From a virus (taxonomy: Duplodnaviria; Heunggongvirae; Uroviricota; Caudoviricetes): 42,217 nucleotides of DNA. This document shows, one piece after another, positions 9,229 through 40,302 of the stretch (its first letter is position 1; every line of letters starts with the position of its first letter). A model generated the notes under the pieces. That model was not told the DNA's origin. It saw only the letters and a list, made by a program, of their open reading frames with translations, and made no database searches. Made by a program: the position numbers and the translations under genes. The stretch is taken from the IMG/VR virus record IMGVR_UViG_2703718801_000022; one strand, written 5' to 3'.

Positions 9229-9260
9229 AAACAAGGCCGCGAAAGCGGCCTGTGACATGT
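9229..9260. terminator. Terminator hairpin downstream of minus-strand antirepressor gene
   Basis: GGCCGC-GAAA-GCGGCC stem followed on the minus strand by TTGTTTTT. Confidence 0.55.
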
Positions 9261-9277
9261 CACGATAGTTCCGTTTT

Positions 9278-9534
9278 GCACATCCCTGTGCCGCCGCCCG
9301 TCAGAAGAACCCTGCCTTGTCGTTGATGTATTCCGCGTGGGTCTGGATATCACGCAGGCATTTACTCACACCGACGATGTAGCAGAACATGGTGGTCAGC
9401 TCCGCCGCCGCGCCCGATACGTCGTGCCCGTCTTCCTGTAACTGGTTCAGCAGATTCATCAGCAGTGAGTTCTCCGTCAGGCCGAGAACACCAGACGGAG
9501 AATGAATCAGACTGCGGTAGCCGGGCTTCAGTGG
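9278..9534. repeat. Inverted repeat, right copy (3' end of second antirepressor gene plus 23 bp)
   Basis: Reverse complement matches 7894-8150. Confidence 0.85.
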
Positions 9535-10239
9535 ATAACCATAACATTTTGTCTGTGTTTTAATTGCCTCACGAAGCGCATCTAACATCTTGACTGCCAC
9601 TTCATCATTCTCTGATGCAACTCCAGCAGGGAGATACTCCCCTTCAAGCGGAACCCGGGCAACAAGAGACAACGCTTCGGCGAATTGATCTTCACCAATT
9701 TCTTTGTACGAACAGCCAAAGTGAGATTTTAGTGACGACCACATGGTAATGATCGCCCTCGCCTGTTTTTCTTTTGGCAGAGACTGACCGCGACTCATGA
9801 CGAGTTGTTTAATGGCTTCCTGCTGTTCAGTCGTGATTTTACCCGGCAACACCTTTTTAGCTTTGCGCGGGTTAACCACATGGCCTTTAGTCCAGTACTC
9901 GTAGAGCACATCATCACACTCTTCCTGATACTGGATTACCTTATCGCGGATTTCAGGGCGGACTTTGTTTGGACTGATGCTGTTCAACCAAGCTGCCAAT
10001 TTTCGTAAAGCCATACAAATCATGGCTTGCACCCCTCCGGCAGAAGGTATGGTGATTTCCACCATACCCTTCGAGAAGCGTTGAGAAATCTTCTTATGTT
10101 GAGATTTCCAGTCTAGACCCATTCCCTCAACGATAGGTTTCATTGGGGTGTACGGTTCGCCGTTGTGATTGACAACATAAAGTTCTACGCCGTGGAATGG
10201 CACGTTGATAGTAGATACCGCTGTTGCTATACTCGTCAT
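9301..10239 (-). CDS. Antirepressor, AntA/P22-Ant-like N-terminal domain plus shared Ant C-terminal domain
   Basis: 312 aa; N-terminus FHGVELYVVNHNGEPYTPMKPIVEGMGLDW; downstream of Arc-like gene as in P22 immI; C-terminus shared with 7417-8127. Confidence 0.75.
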   Translation of the reverse strand: MTSIATAVSTINVPFHGVELYVVNHNGEPYTPMKPIVEGMGLDWKSQHKKISQRFSKGMVEITIPSAGGVQAMICMALRKLAAWLNSISPNKVRPEIRDKVIQYQEECDDVLYEYWTKGHVVNPRKAKKVLPGKITTEQQEAIKQLVMSRGQSLPKEKQARAIITMWSSLKSHFGCSYKEIGEDQFAEALSLVARVPLEGEYLPAGVASENDEVAVKMLDALREAIKTQTKCYGYPLKPGYRSLIHSPSGVLGLTENSLLMNLLNQLQEDGHDVSGAAAELTTMFCYIVGVSKCLRDIQTHAEYINDKAGFF

Positions 10240-10312
10240 GTCGTTAATTCCTATACGTAGTTTTACGATACTGAAGCCCTTACGGTCTGGCCACCGTTGG
10301 GCTTCGCTGTTT
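10240..10312 (+). ncRNA. Candidate sar-like antisense RNA covering the antirepressor RBS
   Basis: -35 TTGATA (10205-10210), 17-bp spacer, -10 TATACT (10228-10233); nested hairpin GAAGCCC..ACGGT..ACCGT..GGGCTTC (10273-10305) + TGTTTTAT; antisense to ant RBS. Confidence 0.4.
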
Positions 10313-10479
10313 TATGCCACGCTATTCTTCTCACCAGTGAGTCCATACACTTTCCTCAACTGATAGATAATCTCTGTATTGAACTTTCGGCATTCTTTTT
10401 CACCATTTCTTTCAATAGCTAACTTCACATCGTCCGGAAAACGAATTCGTCGTTGACACATCTCTTTTGCTTTTTGCAT
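10312..10479 (-). CDS. Arc-like ribbon-helix-helix repressor
   Basis: 55 aa from ATG with AAGGAGAG RBS; RIRFPDDVKLAIERNGEKECRKFNTEIIYQL resembles P22 Arc; immediately upstream of ant. Confidence 0.7.
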   Translation of the reverse strand: MQKAKEMCQRRIRFPDDVKLAIERNGEKECRKFNTEIIYQLRKVYGLTGEKNSVA

Positions 10480-10599
10480 CTCATCTCTCCTTTGCCCCAC
10501 GGTGGGGCAAAATAATTGTCACACCGTGCGTCATTGATGTCAAGCACACGGTGAGGCATACTTCAATCATTGCAAGTAACTCAATATTTGGTGAAGAAC
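10480..10599. promoter_or_regulatory. Divergent Arc-like/Mnt-like control region with palindromic operators
   Basis: Perfect 19-bp palindrome TTGCCCCACGGTGGGGCAA (10492-10510); inverted CACCGTG (10522-10528) / CACGGTG (10547-10553). Confidence 0.5.
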
Positions 10600-11031
10600 A
10601 TGAGCAGAGAAGATCCACAACTAAGGATCAGACTTCCCATTGAAGTAAAAGAAAAAATAGAAATTTCTGCAAAAGCCAATAAGCGATCAATGAACGCTGA
10701 AATAGTACAACGTCTTGACACCAGCTTCCTGAAAGATATTCATGAAGATGACGTAATTTCTGCTTATGAAGCAAAAATCATTGCAAACAACGCACGGCAT
10801 GAAATATCAAATATCATTTTCAAAAGAACCTTTAATGAAATTAATAAAAAAATAACACTTGGACATACAAGTTTTTATATAAACCTTAATGACCTTGAAC
10901 TGGAATCACTTGCAGATAATGATTACCAGGTCATCTTTGAAAAAACATTTAATAAGCTCAATGAACTAGGTTACATCATCTGTGAAAATTCATGGGATGC
11001 AGATGGTTTTGGAATTGAAATACCTGAATAG
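10600..11031 (+). CDS. Mnt-like ribbon-helix-helix regulator with extended C-terminal domain
   Basis: N-terminus MSREDPQLRIRLPIEVKEKIEISAKANKRSMNAEIVQRL resembles P22 Mnt; 143 aa vs 83 aa for Mnt; AT-rich. Confidence 0.6.
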   Translation: MSREDPQLRIRLPIEVKEKIEISAKANKRSMNAEIVQRLDTSFLKDIHEDDVISAYEAKIIANNARHEISNIIFKRTFNEINKKITLGHTSFYINLNDLELESLADNDYQVIFEKTFNKLNELGYIICENSWDADGFGIEIPE

Positions 11032-26728: not shown

Positions 26729-26743
26729 TTACCTTTAAGGTAA
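26729..26743. promoter_or_regulatory. Operator-like palindrome TTACC-TTTAA-GGTAA
   Basis: Perfect member of dispersed family; upstream of portal operon and next to TTGACA at 26707-26712. Confidence 0.45.
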
Positions 26744-27065: not shown

Positions 27066-27142
27066 GTGGCATTAACTCAGTTGGACAGAGCAACCGCCTT
27101 CTAAGCGGTTTGTCGCAGGTTCGAATCCTGCATGCCACGCCA
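27066..27142 (+). tRNA. tRNA-Arg (anticodon UCU)
   Basis: Cloverleaf by eye: acceptor GTGGCAT/ATGCCAC, anticodon stem ACCGC/GCGGT with loop CTTCTAA, T-arm GCAGG-TTCGAAT-CCTGC, 3' GCCA. Confidence 0.85.
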
Positions 27143-27340: not shown

Positions 27341-27712
27341 ATGAACGACCAGCAAATCGAAAAAGAAATCGTTGAGAAAGGCAAAACGGTACCGCGAGTT
27401 ACGCCAGACCATATCGAAGGAATTATTGCTCAGGAGGCATATTTCACAGCAGAGGATGGTGCCTTTGGCAAAGCCATAAAAGCGAAACATACTGGCGGAG
27501 AGGTAAACTACCAGCCGCACGAATCACTTTCTCTGCTGACGTTCTGCGTCCTGGTGCTGCGCAACGGCTTCACCGTCACCGGAGAGAGCGCCTGTGCAAG
27601 CCCGGAAAACTTTGATGCAGAAATTGGTCGGAAGATTGCCAGGCAGAATGCTGTAAACAAAATCTGGATGCTCGAAGGTTACTTGCTGAAGCAGAAGCTA
27701 AGCGAGCAATAA
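27341..27712 (+). CDS. Phage Gp49-like family protein (moron)
   Basis: 123 aa; C-terminal ACASPENFDAEIGRKIARQNAVNKIWMLEGYLLKQ recalled as typical of the Gp49-like family; opposite strand to flanking late genes. Confidence 0.45.
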   Translation: MNDQQIEKEIVEKGKTVPRVTPDHIEGIIAQEAYFTAEDGAFGKAIKAKHTGGEVNYQPHESLSLLTFCVLVLRNGFTVTGESACASPENFDAEIGRKIARQNAVNKIWMLEGYLLKQKLSEQ

Positions 27713-27802
27713 CACCGTGACATGTCACAAACAGTCAGCCGATGAGCTGGCTTTGTTTTATCCTCATCAGAGGATATAAACGACATTATCCCCACCAGCG
27801 GA

Positions 27803-29278
27803 TTAAGCATACGGGTCATAATCTGTGATGGCCTTGCCTTGCTGGTTCTGCTGCCCAGGAATTCGCAGACGCTTCGACACAGGGAAAGCAAACGTCAGCA
27901 GTAGCGCATCGCCTTTACCCGGCGAACGCCCAAGACGCTCTTTGATATCTTCCTTCGGTTCGATAACGATTTTACCGTCCACACGAACTTTGTACTCTGC
28001 CGCCGACAGGTCGTCTGCAGTTTCCAGGTCATCCAGCATGCCGCCCAGCCTCAGCCATGTCTTACATGAGTTGAACATCTCCCCACGCTTGTTAAGCATC
28101 TGCGGGTCAGTGGACGCACCGCCGAACGGAACAAGTTGCCATGTACGTCCCCAGCCATCACCGATTGACTTCAAACCGGTTCCGTAACCGAAGTCGATGA
28201 ACACCGCGTCAGCCTGATACTGGTCTTCAAAGTCAGCGATACGCTTCGCCATAATCAGATCGTCGGTAGTCTTGTTGCCAGTCCACAGCACCTTACTGTG
28301 TAGCCCCTGCCGCAGGTATATCACCGCGTCATCAACGCCTGAATATGCCGGGTCAACACCGATTATCACCGGAGCATGCGCCACCTGCGCAGCGGTTACC
28401 ACCCGTTTCATTGCCTCATCAGTAAGACCGGTAGGGATAAACTGCAATTCAGATGCATCAGGGAATATGCCGCGCACACGGATTTTAACGAAGTCGCTGT
28501 CTTCCCCGTAGTCATCAACCCATTTCTGCAACTGCTGTTTGTTAGTGCCTTCCACCGTTCGGCTGTCAATCTGCGCAGTTTTCCAGCGGTGTTTATATTT
28601 GCGGAAACATTCGCGGAAACGTCCGGTGTTACGTGTAGGGTTTCCGAACGCCACCCAGATAATCTCAGTGTCTTCGTCCGTAAGCGCACCCTCAGCAACT
28701 TCCCACACCAGATCCGCAATGTTCGACGCTTCATCGAATACCACGATGATGCGTTTGCGCTCGTTGTGTAGTCCGGCGAATGCCTCAGTGTTGTGCTCAG
28801 ACCAAGGGATTGCGTCAGCTCGCCACCGCTTGTCGTGCCCAGGGTCATTGCTGTACATCGCGGTAGCGGTACAGGTAAACCACTCTTTCGTGATAGCAAG
28901 GTTCGACCACTTGATAATTTCCGGCCAGGTCTTCGTTCGTAGCTGGTTGTCGGTGTTGGCGGTCACCACGACCTTACAATCCTCGCAAGTGGACATGCCC
29001 CAGTTGATCAGCATTGAGATAAATGCGGATTTACCAATACCGTGACCAGAAGCGCGTGCCAGCATAAGCGGCTGATAGCGCGTCTCCGGATTCTGCAGGT
29101 GATCACGTATCTCTCGGAACGCATCAGCCTGCCACTGACGTGGGCCGGTAGCATGTGCCAGTTCAGTCCCCTCTTCCCCCCACGGGAACGCATAGAGGGC
29201 ATAGCCAAGCGGATCGTGAGTGAACCCTGCAATATCTTCGATTAACTGCTCTTCAGGAGATAACGCTGCATCTGTCAC
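27803..29278 (-). CDS. terL: Terminase large subunit
   Basis: 491 aa; Walker A-like ARASGHGIGKS, acidic ATPase motif VVFDEA, C-terminal nuclease region; precedes portal. Confidence 0.85.
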   Translation of the reverse strand: MTDAALSPEEQLIEDIAGFTHDPLGYALYAFPWGEEGTELAHATGPRQWQADAFREIRDHLQNPETRYQPLMLARASGHGIGKSAFISMLINWGMSTCEDCKVVVTANTDNQLRTKTWPEIIKWSNLAITKEWFTCTATAMYSNDPGHDKRWRADAIPWSEHNTEAFAGLHNERKRIIVVFDEASNIADLVWEVAEGALTDEDTEIIWVAFGNPTRNTGRFRECFRKYKHRWKTAQIDSRTVEGTNKQQLQKWVDDYGEDSDFVKIRVRGIFPDASELQFIPTGLTDEAMKRVVTAAQVAHAPVIIGVDPAYSGVDDAVIYLRQGLHSKVLWTGNKTTDDLIMAKRIADFEDQYQADAVFIDFGYGTGLKSIGDGWGRTWQLVPFGGASTDPQMLNKRGEMFNSCKTWLRLGGMLDDLETADDLSAAEYKVRVDGKIVIEPKEDIKERLGRSPGKGDALLLTFAFPVSKRLRIPGQQNQQGKAITDYDPYA

Positions 29279-29871
29279 TGATTACCATCCTGACGTTCTT
29301 TGAGTCGCTTCCTGGCTGCCGCTATGCGATCAGCAATTGTCACATTCACATTAACATCCAGGCGTTCTTTGAATGCGTTGACGTCGACGTGCTTACCAAT
29401 CAGTTCTAGGTTCTTCACCTTGTCAGGCCATTTAATTTTTTTGAGGATTGTCTCTATCGAGTCCTCGTTCATGTTCATAATGGTCGATGACAGATCAAAG
29501 CCGCTAAGCGTAGTGCGCCATATTTTCGGCCACTCGCGGATTGGCTTAAGACTCCCATCGTCGTTGAGGATATCAATCACGTCCATCTGGTCGATCTCCA
29601 CCAGGCGCATGAGAACGTAATCAGCACTGACGCGCATTCGTTTGTTGCGCTCTTCCATCAACTCGGCAATCCGTTTTTGAATGCGTTCATCGCGCATCAT
29701 GACGCTGGCTTTAACTGCCGCTGTATTTGGGGAGAATCCTGCGTTAATCGCTGCCTGAGTCTGGTTTTCAGGAGTTTTGATGTATGACTGGCAATAAGCC
29801 TCCTGCATTGCTGTTAGTGGCTTAAATTGCGTTGATTTGCGTTTATAGGTTTTAGGTTCAGCAGGCATCAT
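29275..29871 (-). CDS. terS: Terminase small subunit
   Basis: Coupled to terL; start set at internal ATG (MMPAEP) because the upstream ORF extension covers operator and terminator sequence. Confidence 0.65.
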   Translation of the reverse strand: MMPAEPKTYKRKSTQFKPLTAMQEAYCQSYIKTPENQTQAAINAGFSPNTAAVKASVMMRDERIQKRIAELMEERNKRMRVSADYVLMRLVEIDQMDVIDILNDDGSLKPIREWPKIWRTTLSGFDLSSTIMNMNEDSIETILKKIKWPDKVKNLELIGKHVDVNAFKERLDVNVNVTIADRIAAARKRLKERQDGNQ

Positions 29872-29903
29872 AACCACCGTGGTAATAGTTACCGTTGTGG
29901 TAA
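29871..29903. promoter_or_regulatory. Tandem operator-like palindromes at the entry of the late operon
   Basis: TTACC-GTTGT-GGTAA (29889-29903) and TAACC-ACCGT-GGTAA (29871-29885) abutting the terS start codon. Confidence 0.45.
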
Positions 29904-29912
29904 TAGTACCAT

Positions 29913-29941
29913 GCAAAATAAAGCCGCCATAGTTGGCGGCA
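29913..29941 (-). terminator. Terminator-like hairpin upstream of terS
   Basis: On the minus strand GCCGCCAACTATGGCGGC followed by TTTATTTTG. Confidence 0.45.
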
Positions 29942-29945
29942 GTAT

Positions 29946-30179
29946 TCAAAGTCCATCAAATTCATCGTAAAAACTCTCGTCAAGATACCCTTCCCATTTA
30001 CCGCGAATGAAAATTACATCCTCGCCGCAAGGGTGCTGACTGTCGATAACTATATCCCTCCTGGCGCAACCATACTTATGCATGAGAAATTTAACCTCTT
30101 TCGGAAAATTTGCTGAGTTATCTCTCATATCTTCAAGGTCGTAGCGTATTTTTGGCATAACACCTTCGTGACATGTCAC
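29946..30179 (-). CDS. Hypothetical protein
   Basis: 77 aa ORF; start overlaps palindrome GTGACATGTCAC. Confidence 0.4.
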   Translation of the reverse strand: MTCHEGVMPKIRYDLEDMRDNSANFPKEVKFLMHKYGCARRDIVIDSQHPCGEDVIFIRGKWEGYLDESFYDEFDGL

Positions 30180-30514
30180 ACTATTAATTTCGTTTCATGC
30201 CAGCCTTTAGTCACCCAGCATTGTGAGTCACCATTACACGGACATGAATTAACTGGAACTCTCTCGCCGCACTTACCGCAACGTTTTCTACTGATCGATT
30301 TTATACGCCCGCGCACGCGTGCATCATCCTGGCGGATCAGTAACGCTATATACTCACAAAATTCGTAAGGCGCACGCCCGGGGCGACGCGCGGCACAGTT
30401 ACGCTCAAGCATTTCAATTTCCTGAGCATCAAGCACAATTTCCAGCTTACGCACACCAGATGCAGCTTGTCTTGCTCTCTGAGCGGCTTTGCGCTCTGCT
30501 GCTGATTTAGCCAT
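30176..30514 (-). CDS. Cys-rich zinc-ribbon-like protein, possible late regulator
   Basis: 112 aa basic N-terminus and CGKCG...CPCNGDSQC cluster; last early gene before terminase. Confidence 0.45.
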   Translation of the reverse strand: MAKSAAERKAAQRARQAASGVRKLEIVLDAQEIEMLERNCAARRPGRAPYEFCEYIALLIRQDDARVRGRIKSISRKRCGKCGERVPVNSCPCNGDSQCWVTKGWHETKLIV

Positions 30515-32524: not shown

Positions 32525-33191
32525 TTTTGCCCTCCTCCTTTGCGAAGCTGGGCAGCAAAGTCACGGATAGTGCCATCAAGGTCTGGACACAACAGATTGT
32601 CAGCAAACATCTCAACCCCCTGTGCACGAATTTCAGCCAGGAAAGCATCGGTGGCTGGGGTGTCGATATTAGGCAGAAGCGCATAATCGCAAATCGTATC
32701 GATCGCAGGATCACAACAGTCATCCTCGTTGCGTGGTCGTTCGCCAACCTTCGTTGACGATTGCATGATGATTCCCCAGCAAATACTATCGACCTCTTCG
32801 CTCCATCCATCGCAAGCATCACCGCGATAGTCGTCGATTGCAGCCTCAGCCGATTCGATAGCTTCCTCAGCAGTTTTGTGCCATTCGAAATTATGCTCAG
32901 AGCCATATGAGAAATATGAATGTCCCGCCTTCAGCCCCGCATTCTCCGCCGCCAGCGCCGAAAACTTCTCGTGTGCCAACTTAACAGCCGAATCAGCCTG
33001 CTTAATTGACTCAATCGCTCTCTGGTGGTCTTCGGCCAGCGCATTAGACGCACCAGTTGCACTTCCAGTTGCGTTGCCAAATCGCTGATCAGCTTTGCCA
33101 CACTGCGCATATCTACGGCACCACATTCTGCTTTCAGTTCCGAAGCCATCTCATGCCCGGCGGCAACTAACCCTTTGATATTACTTTCCAT
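32521..33191 (-). pseudogene. Ead/Ea22-like gene with apparent internal frameshift
   Basis: Good RBS (GAGGGT) and start at 33191 open an 86-aa ORF whose distal part is Arg-rich junk, while the overlapping 201-aa ORF has an implausible N-terminus; frames appear to switch near repeated GCAACTGG. Confidence 0.35.
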
Positions 33192-33714: not shown

Positions 33715-34515
33715 TTACTTGATAAATCCTGCCGCCTTTCCCCGCCTGTATTCCTCCATCAGCCACTGCGCCGGTGTTATTCCCCCCAGGGTGGCGGCGT
33801 TAGGCATGCACCCGAAACTTCGCCCTGGCGGGTGGTAAACGTCTCTCCCTGTGTCCGGAGGCGTACTCATGGGTTCTGGCTTTGCCTGTATGCTGATCAC
33901 CGGATCGGGTATCTGCTGTCCGGAAGCCACCTTTTTCGCCCAATCATCGAGCAGCCTGCGCGCGTGTTTCTCAACCTCAATCTCGCTAAGCTGGCGCTGA
34001 TACATTGCACGGCGGGTATCACATACGACCCAGTACATAACCGGATGCCGCCACGGGAATCTTTCGGGACCACCAGGATATAAACTTTTTTCTTTGCTGT
34101 ACCGGTGAAACTCCGCCATCACATCGTCAATGGTGACGCCAAGAACCATCTTGCTGTCTTTACACCACTTGATGAATTGCCCTGGCGACGGCCAGAACGG
34201 AGATTCACTGGCGCGGGCATGGCGCATACCAGCAGAAACCTGTTCACGGGTTCGGATCCCCCCTTCGGCAAACGCAGCAATCCACTGCTGTTTTGCAGCA
34301 ACTTCCTGCTCTGGCGTCTTCAGGTTGGTTACCACTGCCGCCGGAAAGAGTTGTTTCAGCTGTTTGAAAAGGGCATCAACAAGCCTCTCTGCTGACATGT
34401 TCACCACATTGTCATTGTTGACGTATTGATGCTCATAACCTGACATGCGAGAAAGGGCTTCTCCGTCACGGTTTTGTATCGCGGTAAAAACGTTGTTCAC
34501 AAGAAATCCTCCCAC
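33715..34515 (-). CDS. Replication protein P-like (helicase loader)
   Basis: 266 aa; blocks resembling lambda P (QWIAAFAEGGIRTREQVSAGMRHAR, FWPSPGQFIKWC, YPGGPERFPWRHPVMYWVV). Confidence 0.75.
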   Translation of the reverse strand: MGGFLVNNVFTAIQNRDGEALSRMSGYEHQYVNNDNVVNMSAERLVDALFKQLKQLFPAAVVTNLKTPEQEVAAKQQWIAAFAEGGIRTREQVSAGMRHARASESPFWPSPGQFIKWCKDSKMVLGVTIDDVMAEFHRYSKEKSLYPGGPERFPWRHPVMYWVVCDTRRAMYQRQLSEIEVEKHARRLLDDWAKKVASGQQIPDPVISIQAKPEPMSTPPDTGRDVYHPPGRSFGCMPNAATLGGITPAQWLMEEYRRGKAAGFIK

Positions 34516-35312
34516 GCTTCAGGGCTGTTCCAGTGCGGAACGTTGTTATCAGGTAATGTTGATTGCTTCTGTCTGCTAATCTGCATCCGCCTTGCCAACT
34601 TCTGCTCCCACTGTGCCTGATGGTATGCCTTACCCTCAGCCATCCAGTAAATTCTGAACTCTGCAAGTTCCTGTGCCGTTGGCAGACTGTCCAGGTAGAT
34701 CCCCTGCAATGAGCTTTTCCGAAGAAAGTCATCTGATGGTTGCCATTGTTCATGCATGACAAATTTGCCTAATTGCCCTGGCCCACCAGGAGGAACAAAG
34801 TTATTCATCACGGCGTTGTTTGCGCCGGGGTCATGAGACACAGAATCCCCGTTTTTTGTCCTGCTCTCCCTCTCTTGGTTAAATGACTGGTTATATGACT
34901 GGTTCTGGATCCCGTTTTTGGGATCATTCAACATCCCGTTTTTGGGATCATTCAACATCCCGTTTTTGGGTATATTCCCGTTTTCGGTAACATTACCGTT
35001 TTCGGGTTCATTACCCCCTTCCCGGTTGCCTTTAATGTTCCCGTTTTTGGTTATATTAAGAGAGAAAACCCGCACTCTTTTCGTCGCTCCCTTTCTCTCT
35101 CCGGTATCTGAAATAAGCCCCATTTTCATGAGCGATATAAGCCCGGCCTGCACGGTTTTTTTATTCAGGCAAGTGTCTTTAACGAGGCGTTCTATGCTGG
35201 GGTAGCAGAGGTTATATTCATCGGCTCTGTCAGCCATCGAGAGCAGTATGAGCTTTAATGACGAGCTACCTGGATCTGTCTCCCAGGCCCAATCTGTTGC
35301 ATGTCTGCTCAT
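34497..35312 (-). CDS. Replication initiator O-like protein
   Basis: N-terminal HTH-like domain, internal Asn/Gly repeat linker encoded by iterons, C-terminal domain; precedes P-like gene. Confidence 0.7.
   Translation of the reverse strand: MSRHATDWAWETDPGSSSLKLILLSMADRADEYNLCYPSIERLVKDTCLNKKTVQAGLISLMKMGLISDTGERKGATKRVRVFSLNITKNGNIKGNREGGNEPENGNVTENGNIPKNGMLNDPKNGMLNDPKNGIQNQSYNQSFNQERESRTKNGDSVSHDPGANNAVMNNFVPPGGPGQLGKFVMHEQWQPSDDFLRKSSLQGIYLDSLPTAQELAEFRIYWMAEGKAYHQAQWEQKLARRMQISRQKQSTLPDNNVPHWNSPEAWEDFL
34905..35052. repeat. Origin-like iteron array inside the O-like gene
   Basis: CCCGTTTT(T/C)GG recurs about six times with 18-24-bp period (e.g. 34911, 34935, 34959, 34977, 34996, 35040). 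Confidence 0.7.
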
Positions 35313-36063: not shown

Positions 36064-36648
36064 ATGAAAAGTATCCAGGACGTCCGCAGGCAAAATCTCA
36101 ACGACTTGATCGACCGTGAATTCAATGGTGTTCAGACGCGGATGGCAGAAAAACTTGGAACTCAGGCAAATCTGGTAAACCGCTGGGCTCTTGGCAAGAA
36201 GGTTATCGGCGACCAGGTTGCGCGAAAAATTGAAGCTGCCGCCAATAAACCCCGTAACTGGCTTGATATCGATCGCTCGCTTTCTCAGGAAGGTTTTCAG
36301 CCTGTCGGCCCAAGCGACATTGGTCAGCTGGCGGCTCACAACCTGGAACGCTGGATGAGCGAAAGCCGCGACCTTTCAACACAGGGAAAACTTCACCGCG
36401 CATCCGGCGTCGCCCAGGTGACAATCAGCCGCCTGTTAAACAATGAGGTCAGCGTTTCCATTTCCACCCTGGAGAATGTTGCATCCGCATTCGGGCGTCA
36501 CGGATATGAACTACTGATTCACCCGCACGACCCTGCGACTATCAACTATGACCGCTCGCGCTACGCATTGTTACCCGAAACCGAGAAAGCAAAGATCGAA
36601 AGTTACATTGAATTTGTCATCAACCAGAACGAAAAAAACAAACAATAA
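36064..36648 (+). CDS. Prophage repressor with two tandem HTH domains and no peptidase S24 domain
   Basis: 194 aa; HTH-like segments MAEKLGTQANLVNRWALGKK and ASGVAQVTISRLLNNEVSVSISTLENVASAFG; no Ala-Gly/Ser..Lys autocleavage module. Confidence 0.7.
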   Translation: MKSIQDVRRQNLNDLIDREFNGVQTRMAEKLGTQANLVNRWALGKKVIGDQVARKIEAAANKPRNWLDIDRSLSQEGFQPVGPSDIGQLAAHNLERWMSESRDLSTQGKLHRASGVAQVTISRLLNNEVSVSISTLENVASAFGRHGYELLIHPHDPATINYDRSRYALLPETEKAKIESYIEFVINQNEKNKQ

Positions 36649-39359: not shown

Positions 39360-39659
39360 GTGAGAAAGTTAAGCCGACTTGAAAAATATCACATGAACAA
39401 GGTTTCAATGCGCAGTCCATCAAAGATTGTCGCCGTTACTCCTGCGGCGATAGAGATCGAAAAACGCGCGATTGAAAGAGAGAAAAAAGGGCAGTTCCGC
39501 ATTGCCGCTCACCTTTGGCTTCAGTGTATGGATGTTGCTTCTGGTGATGTTGAGCGTGCAAGGATCGCGGTTCGCAGGGACCAATGTATCACAAAAGGTA
39601 ACGGCCTTCGCCGTGGCGACTATAGCGGCATAGGATGTTGTGGGGTGGTTTATGACTAA
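39360..39659 (+). CDS. Hypothetical protein (ANR-like pattern)
   Basis: 99 aa; alternative ATG at 39393; ending overlaps methyltransferase start. Confidence 0.35.
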   Translation: MRKLSRLEKYHMNKVSMRSPSKIVAVTPAAIEIEKRAIEREKKGQFRIAAHLWLQCMDVASGDVERARIAVRRDQCITKGNGLRRGDYSGIGCCGVVYD

Positions 39660-40302
39660 GAAATACACACTAATCTATGCAGATCCACCCTGGGTATACC
39701 GGGACAAAGCCGCAGATGGTAATCGCGGTGCCGGTTTTAAATATCCGGTTATGAGTGTGCTGGATATCTGCCGCCTTCCTGTGTGGGATTTGACCGCTGA
39801 AAACTGTCTGTTGGCCATGTGGTGGGTGCCAACACAACCACTCGAAGCGCTAAAAGTTGTTGAAGCCTGGGGATTCCGTCTGATGACCATGAAGGGCTTC
39901 ACGTGGATAAAATGTGGTAGTCGACAACCAGATAAACTGGTTATGGGTATGGGACACATGACTCGCGCCAATAGTGAAGATTGCCTGTTTGCAGTAAAGG
40001 GAAAACTACCTCCACGCATTAATGCAGGGATCGTTCAGTCATTTACCGCACCGCGGCTTGAGCATTCAAGAAAACCAGATGTCGTTCGTGAAAAACTTGT
40101 GCAATTGTTAGGCGATGTTTCTCGCATTGAACTGTTCGCCCGCCAGACGTCTCATGGCTTCGATGTTTGGGGTAATCAGTGCGAAGACCCGGCAGTGCAA
40201 CTACACCCTGGATACGCGTTGGATATTGGCGGATTAACAAATGCATTCAGCAATGCTCCGGTGTCACCAATAGACAACCAGGGGCGGGAGCGTGCAGCAT
40301 GA
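39652..40302 (+). CDS. MT-A70 family N6-adenine DNA methyltransferase
   Basis: ATG at 39652; catalytic DPPW motif in YADPPWVY. Confidence 0.75.

Follow-up and report, generated by a model that had tools for sequence, protein, structure and literature searches.

We analysed a stretch of 42,217 nucleotides from a virus of the class Caudoviricetes (IMG/VR record IMGVR_UViG_2703718801_000022; the whole stretch is called the window here), with a focus on the short control element in front of its terminase genes. The gene for the small terminase subunit, terS, lies at 29275-29871 on the minus strand. Its 198-aa product matches Pfam Terminase_2 (E 1e-29) and phrog_51 (E 7.7e-58), and terL (27803-29278, minus strand) follows directly. 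The start codon of terS is the ATG at 29871 on the minus strand, and the Shine-Dalgarno sequence GGTGG can be read at 29874-29878; GGTGG or a one-base variant of it stands before terS in all 23 relatives aligned. Upstream of terS, an operon on the same strand opens with a cro-like gene, opposite the repressor gene at 36064-36648 (plus strand), and continues with replication genes, a RuvC-like gene, ea22/DUF551/DUF4752/ASCH genes and a gene for a 112-aa protein (30514-30176); then come an open reading frame (ORF) of 70-77 aa (30158-29946), terS and terL. The operon from the cro-like gene to the 112-aa gene is the early-right operon (cro-replication-nin-like). An earlier annotation of this DNA from the letters alone, which we call the sequence-only reading, was therefore correct in stating that the early operon points into the late genes.

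In the region around terS, identity to phiV10, TL-2011b, PAS61, ZX5 and other E. coli phages related to them is 93-98%; for Salmonella phage epsilon15, SPN1S and Enterobacter phage Tyrion it is 81-87%. Judged by this identity, the window is a prophage of the Uetakevirus type (epsilon15/phiV10-like) and belongs to the E. coli branch of phiV10 and TL-2011b. The arrangement is common: 131 bases around the site upstream of terS were matched in 502 of 5426 complete E. coli genomes (approximately 9%).

The early-right operon ends in an intrinsic terminator at 29914-29940 (minus strand), which begins 5 nt past the stop codon of the upstream ORF. A G+C-rich stem of 7 bp (GCCGCCA/TGGCGGC, 29940-29923, six G-C pairs) closes an ACTA loop and is followed directly by the T-tail TTTATTTTG at 29922-29914. 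The folding energy is -13.8 kcal/mol (z -3.8), and none of 200 shuffled sequences was equally stable. The same hairpin was found in relatives from E. coli, Salmonella, Enterobacter, Klebsiella, Citrobacter, Scandinavium, Superficieibacter, Kluyvera and Pseudescherichia. The stem is nearly invariant across these genera, and therefore not a single compensatory change could be counted. In the RefSeq record of epsilon15, the homologous hairpin is labelled as a rho-independent terminator (39646-39672, the last 27 bases). Fold energy, T-tail and conservation across genera indicate that the terminator is real, as the sequence-only reading had proposed. It is missing in five relatives (BUCT554, L018, L020, L177 and L178), where the terS element is instead preceded by the 3' end of an unrelated gene.

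Between the terminator and terS lies a predicted binding site for the lysogeny repressor. This protein, Rep, is encoded at 36064-36648 on the plus strand, belongs to phrog_8 and matches the repressor of phage SPC32H (PDB 5D50) over its full length with E 4e-42; it is the putative cognate repressor of the palindrome TTACC-N5-GGTAA. The window contains nine exact copies of this motif, starting at 7133, 8200, 26729, 29889, 33601, 33663, 35994, 36706 and 36768, compared with 0.06 expected. The copy at terS is the predicted operator ATTACC-ACAAC-GGTAAC (29888-29904, exact core 29889-29903). In 26 distinct relatives the half-site TTACC never varies and GGTAA deviates once, while the spacer is free (C8/A8/G4/T6 in spacer column 6).

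The sequence-only reading had described two tandem operator palindromes at this place. Both are present in the sequence (GGTAATAGTACC at 29899-29910 and GGTAATAGTTACC at 29881-29893, plus strand), but a role as operators of this phage was not confirmed: their arms stand in reversed order (GGTA...TACC) relative to the Rep operator, and only one consensus site, built from the inner arms of the two palindromes, is found at terS. The outer arms drift in the relatives, on one side from GGTAC to GTTAC, GATAC or GATAG, and on the other from TTACC to TTACT, TTTTC or TTAAT, with a spacing of 3 to 5 nt. Read on the minus strand, the second palindrome (GGTAA-CTA-TTACC, 29881-29893) consists of the right arm of the operator and a semi-conserved TTAC(C/T). 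When it was evaluated as a hairpin of the 5' untranslated region with a loop of 3 to 5 nt in the relatives, 98% of the alignment cells were pairable, and covariation was no better than in shuffled alignments (275/500).

The type phage has the same pair of elements in its annotation. In RefSeq, the epsilon15 record lists repressor-binding sites of the form ATTACC-N4/5-GGTAAT, for which it states no basis, and places one of them ('protein_bind: repressor', 12-27) right after the annotated terminator, with terS starting at 47. The core observation of a terminator and a repressor site before terS is thus already contained in that record. A repressor site is also annotated before each of the late units of epsilon15, namely terS-terL, the unit from gp3 (portal) to gp18, and the tailspike, which are set apart by genes of opposite orientation. 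The matching sites in the window are those at 29889 and 26729. With the same phage group, a homologous repressor, an identical operator motif and terS-region DNA that is 81-98% identical within the group, the arrangement in the window belongs to the epsilon15/SPC32H Rep regulon. As a site for the lysogeny repressor separates the terminator from terS, clearance of the repressor would be needed for entry into the late genes, a point on which the sequence-only reading holds up.

Some Rep operators occur in pairs exactly 62 bp apart from start to start, at PL (36706/36768) and at the promoter of the RuvC gene (33601/33663). The same spacing is seen in epsilon15 (L017) at 32555/32617 and 35907/35969, and suggests cooperative or looped binding by a tetrameric repressor. 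Unlike these pairs, the operator at terS is a singleton.

It could be argued that the repeats before terS are a packaging signal (pac, recognised by TerS) or a translational operator and have no part in transcriptional control. The element directly adjoins terS, and the GenBank numbering of several relatives begins within a few bases of it. The 15-bp motif, however, is found at eight other places in the window, including PL, the immunity region and the c4-ant promoter, which are unrelated to packaging. Moreover, the starts of the records differ by tens of bases between relatives, so that they look like a numbering convention and not like mapped ends. We regard this explanation as extremely unlikely.

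Between the T-tail of the terminator and the operator, there is space for a further element. The nonamer TGgTACTAT ("P_terS", 29903-29911, minus strand), with TG at 29911-29910 and the hexamer TACTAT at 29908-29903, has the features of an extended -10 element: TG at -15/-14, one base before a hexamer that retains A2 and T6. The last T of the hexamer is also the first T of the operator. In the 26 distinct relatives, conservation is confined to the informative positions. T and G are invariant, the next column is free (G8/T10/A8), T and A are again invariant, another free column follows (C16/G9/T1), then T in 25 of 26, and finally an invariant A and T. Read in this way, the columns reproduce the information pattern of TGnTAnnAT-type promoters. 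The right flank of the operator does not mirror the pattern, and TGnTAnTAT is therefore not part of a longer symmetric operator. In the five relatives that lack the terminator, TGnTAGTAT and the operator are both retained, and conservation starts exactly at the TG.

The position of the hexamer relative to the operator recurs at other promoters of the window. At the strong early-left promoter PL (TTGACA-17-AATTAT, operator 36768), the end of the -10 hexamer coincides with the first T of the operator. The promoter of the RuvC gene (TTGATT-17-TTTAAT, operator 33601) and the c4/isrK promoter (TTGCAA-17-TATATT, operator 7133) have the same register, as do the homologous PL and RuvC-gene promoters of epsilon15, and the TGn+TACTAT before terS sits in exactly the register of PL. 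In its design, the element resembles extended -10 promoters of the galP1 type (TGn), with TG one base before a hexamer that keeps T1, A2 and T6 and with no usable -35. Compared with that class, the putative terS hexamer matches TATAAT at four of six positions.

Taken together, we consider it probable that terS-terL is transcribed from its own Rep-repressed sigma-70 promoter and that the terminator insulates the early operon. Early-right transcription would run from the cro-like gene through the replication, RuvC and ea22-type genes, the 112-aa gene and the cassette ORF (the 70-77-aa frame), and would stop at 29940-29914. Immediately downstream, overlapping the region of the T-tail, a sigma-70 extended -10 promoter without a -35 would occupy 29911-29903. 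From the position of the -10 hexamer, the transcription start would be expected approximately 7 nt further on, at 29894-29898 (minus strand). A start at approximately 29896 would give a leader of about 25 nt that includes the GGTGG at 29878-29874. The single Rep operator (29889-29903), which shares the last T of the hexamer, would be centred on this start and cover it. In a lysogen, Rep bound there would occlude RNA polymerase and would also stop any read-through. Once Rep was inactivated by phage-encoded antirepressors (two antirepressor-like proteins are encoded in the window, at 7402-8127 and 9301-10239), polymerase would start at this promoter and produce the terS-terL mRNA. The promoter itself would be weak, and the terminator would act as an insulator between early and late units and not as a gate that has to be overridden.

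The sequence-only reading had found no room for a promoter before terS and had concluded that the late genes depend on read-through or antitermination. Neither statement could be sustained: a conserved TGgTACTAT fits between the T-tail and the operator, is kept in relatives without the terminator and stands in the register of PL. The predicted start at approximately 29896 would fall within 29872-29912, the interval in which, according to that reading, a mapped start would reveal an unrecognised late promoter.

Several points weigh against a promoter of this kind. There is no recognisable -35 element upstream of TGgTACTAT, and the hexamer TACTAT agrees with TATAAT at only four of six positions. 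A generic promoter scan, which demands a -35 as well as a -10 hexamer, did not list terS. Positions 5 and 6 of the hexamer (A, T) also belong to the extended operator consensus ATTACC, and the register alone is therefore weak evidence. At the second late unit (operator 26729, read in the minus-strand orientation), the promoter-like elements are weak. A literature search retrieved no 5'-end data for the terS transcript, and the papers on ZX5 and phiV10 contain neither transcript mapping nor operator data for this site. Finally, control by Rep alone provides no obvious delay between early and late expression, which is unusual for a tailed temperate phage. Such a delay could be supplied by gene dosage after replication or by a factor without a DNA site. 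One candidate for a booster of late promoters that has no conserved DNA site is a PerC-like protein annotated as a 'transcriptional activator' (39360-39659, plus strand, phrog_868), the counterpart of epsilon15 gp31, which is encoded in the early-left operon. Among the relatives compared, no sequence upstream of the TG was common to all contexts; an activator that binds at a set position further upstream is thereby made less likely.

The missing -35 and the imperfect hexamer would also suit a reading without any functional promoter, and so does the point that control by Rep alone would give no delay between early and late genes. The late genes would then be transcribed only by polymerases that come from the early promoters and pass the terminator, aided by an antitermination factor, for example the 112-aa protein, and Rep at the operator would act only as a stoperator-like roadblock against leaky read-through in the lysogen. 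The arrangement lends itself to this view: terminator and operator are adjacent and both conserved, the 112-aa gene is the last gene of the early operon, and its presumed site, the perfect palindrome GTGACATGTCAC, stands between its stop and the terminator. Two further operon ends, in the window as in epsilon15, also have a copy shortly before a terminator. Yet read-through would leave the conservation of TGnTAnTAT unexplained, and it does not account for the five relatives that lack the terminator and nevertheless retain the -10 element and the operator. Nor does it agree with epsilon15, whose late units are split by genes on the opposite strand and have an operator each. The distances are also against it, since the palindrome lies between 22 and more than 230 nt from the terminator and up to approximately 500 nt from terS. 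For these reasons and those given below for the 112-aa protein, we consider entry by read-through alone unlikely.

The 112-aa protein is encoded at 30176-30514 on the minus strand and is the last conserved early-right gene; it corresponds to epsilon15 gp49, N15 gp46 and ZF40 gp22. The protein is phrog_536. It belongs to no Pfam family, no match to a Q or N family was obtained in Pfam, PHROG or NCBIfam, and its single NCBIfam match (PRK11675, E 0.04) is below threshold. No sequence in the PDB matched it, and profiles did not identify a ribbon-helix-helix domain at the sequence level. A first structure model was discarded because of a pLDDT of 61.5. The structure prediction, which the sequence-only reading had named as a way to examine this protein, showed the strand-helix-helix arrangement of a ribbon-helix-helix fold; four cysteines (C79, C82, C91 and C99) form a C-terminal zinc site and are invariant in all homologues compared. 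On the strength of the fold and the cysteine cluster, the 112-aa protein is therefore classed as a putative sequence-specific DNA binder of the Arc/CopG/MetJ class with a zinc site, and it is not Q- or N-like.

Members of the phrog_536 family were found in 152 of 50,697 phage records. Homologues are encoded by Uetakeviruses, the Pectobacterium myovirus ZF40 (gp22), N15 and phiKO2 (gp46), P2-like Yersinia phages, and Vibrio and Aeromonas phages. Both ZF40 and N15 encode a Q-type regulator as well and have the phrog_536 gene far from their late genes; in a Yersinia phage, it follows the replication gene. This coexistence with Q-type regulators, at a distance from the late genes, argues against a role in antitermination, and so does the fold, since a ribbon-helix-helix fold is not known from any antiterminator. 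The dissimilarity to lambda Q that the sequence-only reading had noted is thus confirmed by the family searches, the fold and the homologues that occur alongside Q-type regulators. Furthermore, N- and Q-type antiterminator families were not found among the early-region and immunity-region proteins scanned.

The TGA that ends the 112-aa gene lies within the palindrome GTGACATGTCAC (12 bp, perfect) at 30168-30179. Three exact copies are present in the window (9252-9263, 27717-27728 and 30168-30179), three in epsilon15 (2142, 19517 and 39612) and three in ZF40 (L098; 5125, 7622 and 14944), compared with an expectation of approximately 0.03-0.05 per genome. In ZF40 one copy lies just past the stop codon of the 112-aa homologue, and the sequences found at the stop codons of the homologues are GTGACGCGTCAC in a P2-like Yersinia phage and GTGACTGGTCAC in N15. 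When a 14-bp version of the palindrome was looked up in IMG/VR and a few kb were fetched around each match, a homologue was encoded in 32 of 120 loci, and in 18 of these 32 the palindrome was no more than 12 nt away from where the protein match ends; many of the 14-mer matches are probably due to chance. From this association, the 112-aa ribbon-helix-helix/zinc protein probably binds GTGACATGTCAC. None of the papers searched contains the palindrome.

All six copies in the window and epsilon15 are located just past the end of a gene and upstream of a terminator on the strand of that gene. The copies in ZF40, N15 and the Yersinia phage are without this arrangement. The recurring order of gene end, palindrome and terminator would suit a dual entry into the late genes, in which the Rep-controlled promoter is accompanied by substantial read-through of the terminator, modulated by the palindrome-bound 112-aa protein to give a temporal boost. 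All of the evidence for the promoter is compatible with such a scheme, and in phages of the BUCT554 type, which have no terminator, upstream transcripts can enter terS. Nothing that we found, however, links the 112-aa protein to termination. In a wider IMG/VR sample, terminator-like sites were only weakly enriched near the palindrome (19 of 129 contexts versus 78 of 1290 random positions), and a pairing of the terS Shine-Dalgarno sequence with ACCAC of the operator region in read-through RNA had no covariation support. We judge dual entry, too, to be improbable. A more specific proposal is that the 112-aa protein on GTGACATGTCAC decides whether polymerase stops at the adjacent terminator and so gates the read-through from early to late genes alongside the Rep-controlled promoter. 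We regard this as a decidedly long shot; if true, it would represent a DNA-site-dependent switch of termination or antitermination of an undescribed kind.

Two other functions of the palindrome were rejected. As an activator site at a fixed position for the terS promoter it is unsuitable, as its centre varies widely in position, from approximately -73.5 in epsilon15, -74.5 in L026 and -91.5 in TL-2011b and L022 to approximately -285 in the window and -500 in BUCT554. A promoter inside the palindrome, with GTGACA as -35, is plausible in epsilon15-type sequences only: GTGACA-17-TAAATT can be read there, whereas sequences of the E. coli type, the window and ZF40 do not have it.

The half-sites of the palindrome are those of a bacterial element. 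In the passage of PMC3603311 that cites Mercier 2008, matS is given as GTGAC-RNY-GTCAC, a 13-bp sequence (GTGACRNYGTCAC). Set against the consensus as quoted there, the phage palindrome GTGAC-AT-GTCAC has identical half-sites but comprises 12 bp, one central base fewer, and is thus not a 13-bp matS site. The 112-aa protein has no detectable sequence similarity to MatP, and a zinc site takes the place of the helical bundle and coiled coil of MatP. In a weaker variant of the proposal above, it may be a MatP-like factor of the phage that bridges the three palindrome sites. The pairing of palindrome and ribbon-helix-helix protein is the sole element of the locus that could be new.

We compared the preferred reading, a Rep-repressed promoter for terS-terL behind an insulating terminator, with known modes of late-gene control. 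The layout recalls lambda Q with PR'-tR', where the last early gene is followed by a short non-coding stretch with a terminator and then by the late genes. In contrast to the lambda proteins, the 112-aa protein has no match in any Q or N family and has relatives that coexist with genuine Q-type proteins, and the terminator is dispensable in some relatives. Between the 112-aa gene and the terminator, the sequences compared have no consistent promoter, and hence no constitutive lambda-type promoter that carries a Q-binding element. The terS arrangement thus does not qualify as a lambda Q or N module.

In phage P1, a single repressor, C1, acts at many scattered and individually repressed promoters, and the late genes require the C1-controlled activator Lpa. 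The window likewise has dispersed repressed promoters, and a c4 antisense RNA with an ant module behind a Rep operator. In contrast to P1, the repressor family and operator sequence are unrelated, the operators stand directly before the late units, and no site for a late activator is conserved. Mycobacteriophage L5 has many stoperators for gp71 outside its immunity region, at which the bound repressor can halt elongating polymerase; they lie within operons or between them, late operons included, are asymmetric and work in one orientation within transcribed regions. A roadblock of this kind is possible at terS in addition to promoter occlusion, but the terS site is palindromic and abuts the -10 element, which is the classical geometry of an operator. 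With respect to epsilon15, two differences should be mentioned: its record annotates no promoter before terS, so that the extended -10 reading is our own, and the window carries the extra cassette ORF of 70-77 aa between the 112-aa gene and the terminator.

This variable ORF (29946-30158, minus strand; phrog_1541, E 2.9e-39) is listed with 77 aa from a GTG, and its start is likely the ATG at 30158. It lies outside the control element. Only an 8-codon remnant is left of it in TL-2011b and PAS61. In BUCT554, ST512, L018-L020 and L025, it is exchanged for a LexA-box promoter and another gene. The LexA box of these relatives (TACTGTTTAAATGTACAGTA, in the cassette equivalent to 29946-30167 of the window) drives a different small gene, and such a cassette would put an SOS-inducible transcript immediately ahead of terS.

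The deposited records of PAS61, PAT1 and SPN1S give terS a long N-terminal extension (approximately 224 aa; 29872-29949 in the window), with which the terminator, the promoter and the operator would be translated. We rejected this annotation: indels upstream of the ATG break the extended frame in relatives, and the terS product of 197-198 aa is therefore correct.

Other modules of the window were also noted. At 7133-8127 (plus strand), a Rep operator and the in-register TTGCAA-17-TATATT are followed by the Rfam families isrK (7184-7260) and C4 antisense RNA (7285-7368) and by the antirepressor-like gene at 7402-8127; this is an immI module of the P1 type under the lysogeny repressor. At 9301-11031 there is an immI module of the P22 type. 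It consists of a second antirepressor gene (9301-10239, minus strand), an Arc-like gene ahead of it (10312-10500, minus strand) and a divergent Mnt-like gene (10570-11031, plus strand). The phage therefore has two different antirepressor systems. A tRNA-Arg gene (anticodon TCT, 27066-27142, plus strand) belongs to a plus-strand unit that is embedded between terL and the portal operon; the tRNA gene comes after the operator at 26729 and before a 123-aa gene (27341-27712). The terminator scan also revealed two tandem copies of TGGGATCATTCAACATCCCGTTTTTGGG at 34919-34962 (plus strand) within the replication-initiator gene (34497-35312), which look like origin iterons.

There is little new in the terS arrangement as such: the record of the genus's reference phage already annotates it, and approximately 9% of complete E. 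coli genomes contain a match to this stretch. A possible new lead is the widespread small ribbon-helix-helix/zinc protein and its matS-like palindrome, which occur together in four otherwise dissimilar phage groups. For phages of the epsilon15/phiV10 type, our analysis suggests that the late genes are switched directly by the lysogeny repressor, with a promoter of its own for each late unit, and that late switching appears not to pass through a cascade of the Q or N kind. This is of relevance for the engineering of reporter phages from phiV10 or SPC32H and for predicting late-gene expression in this group.

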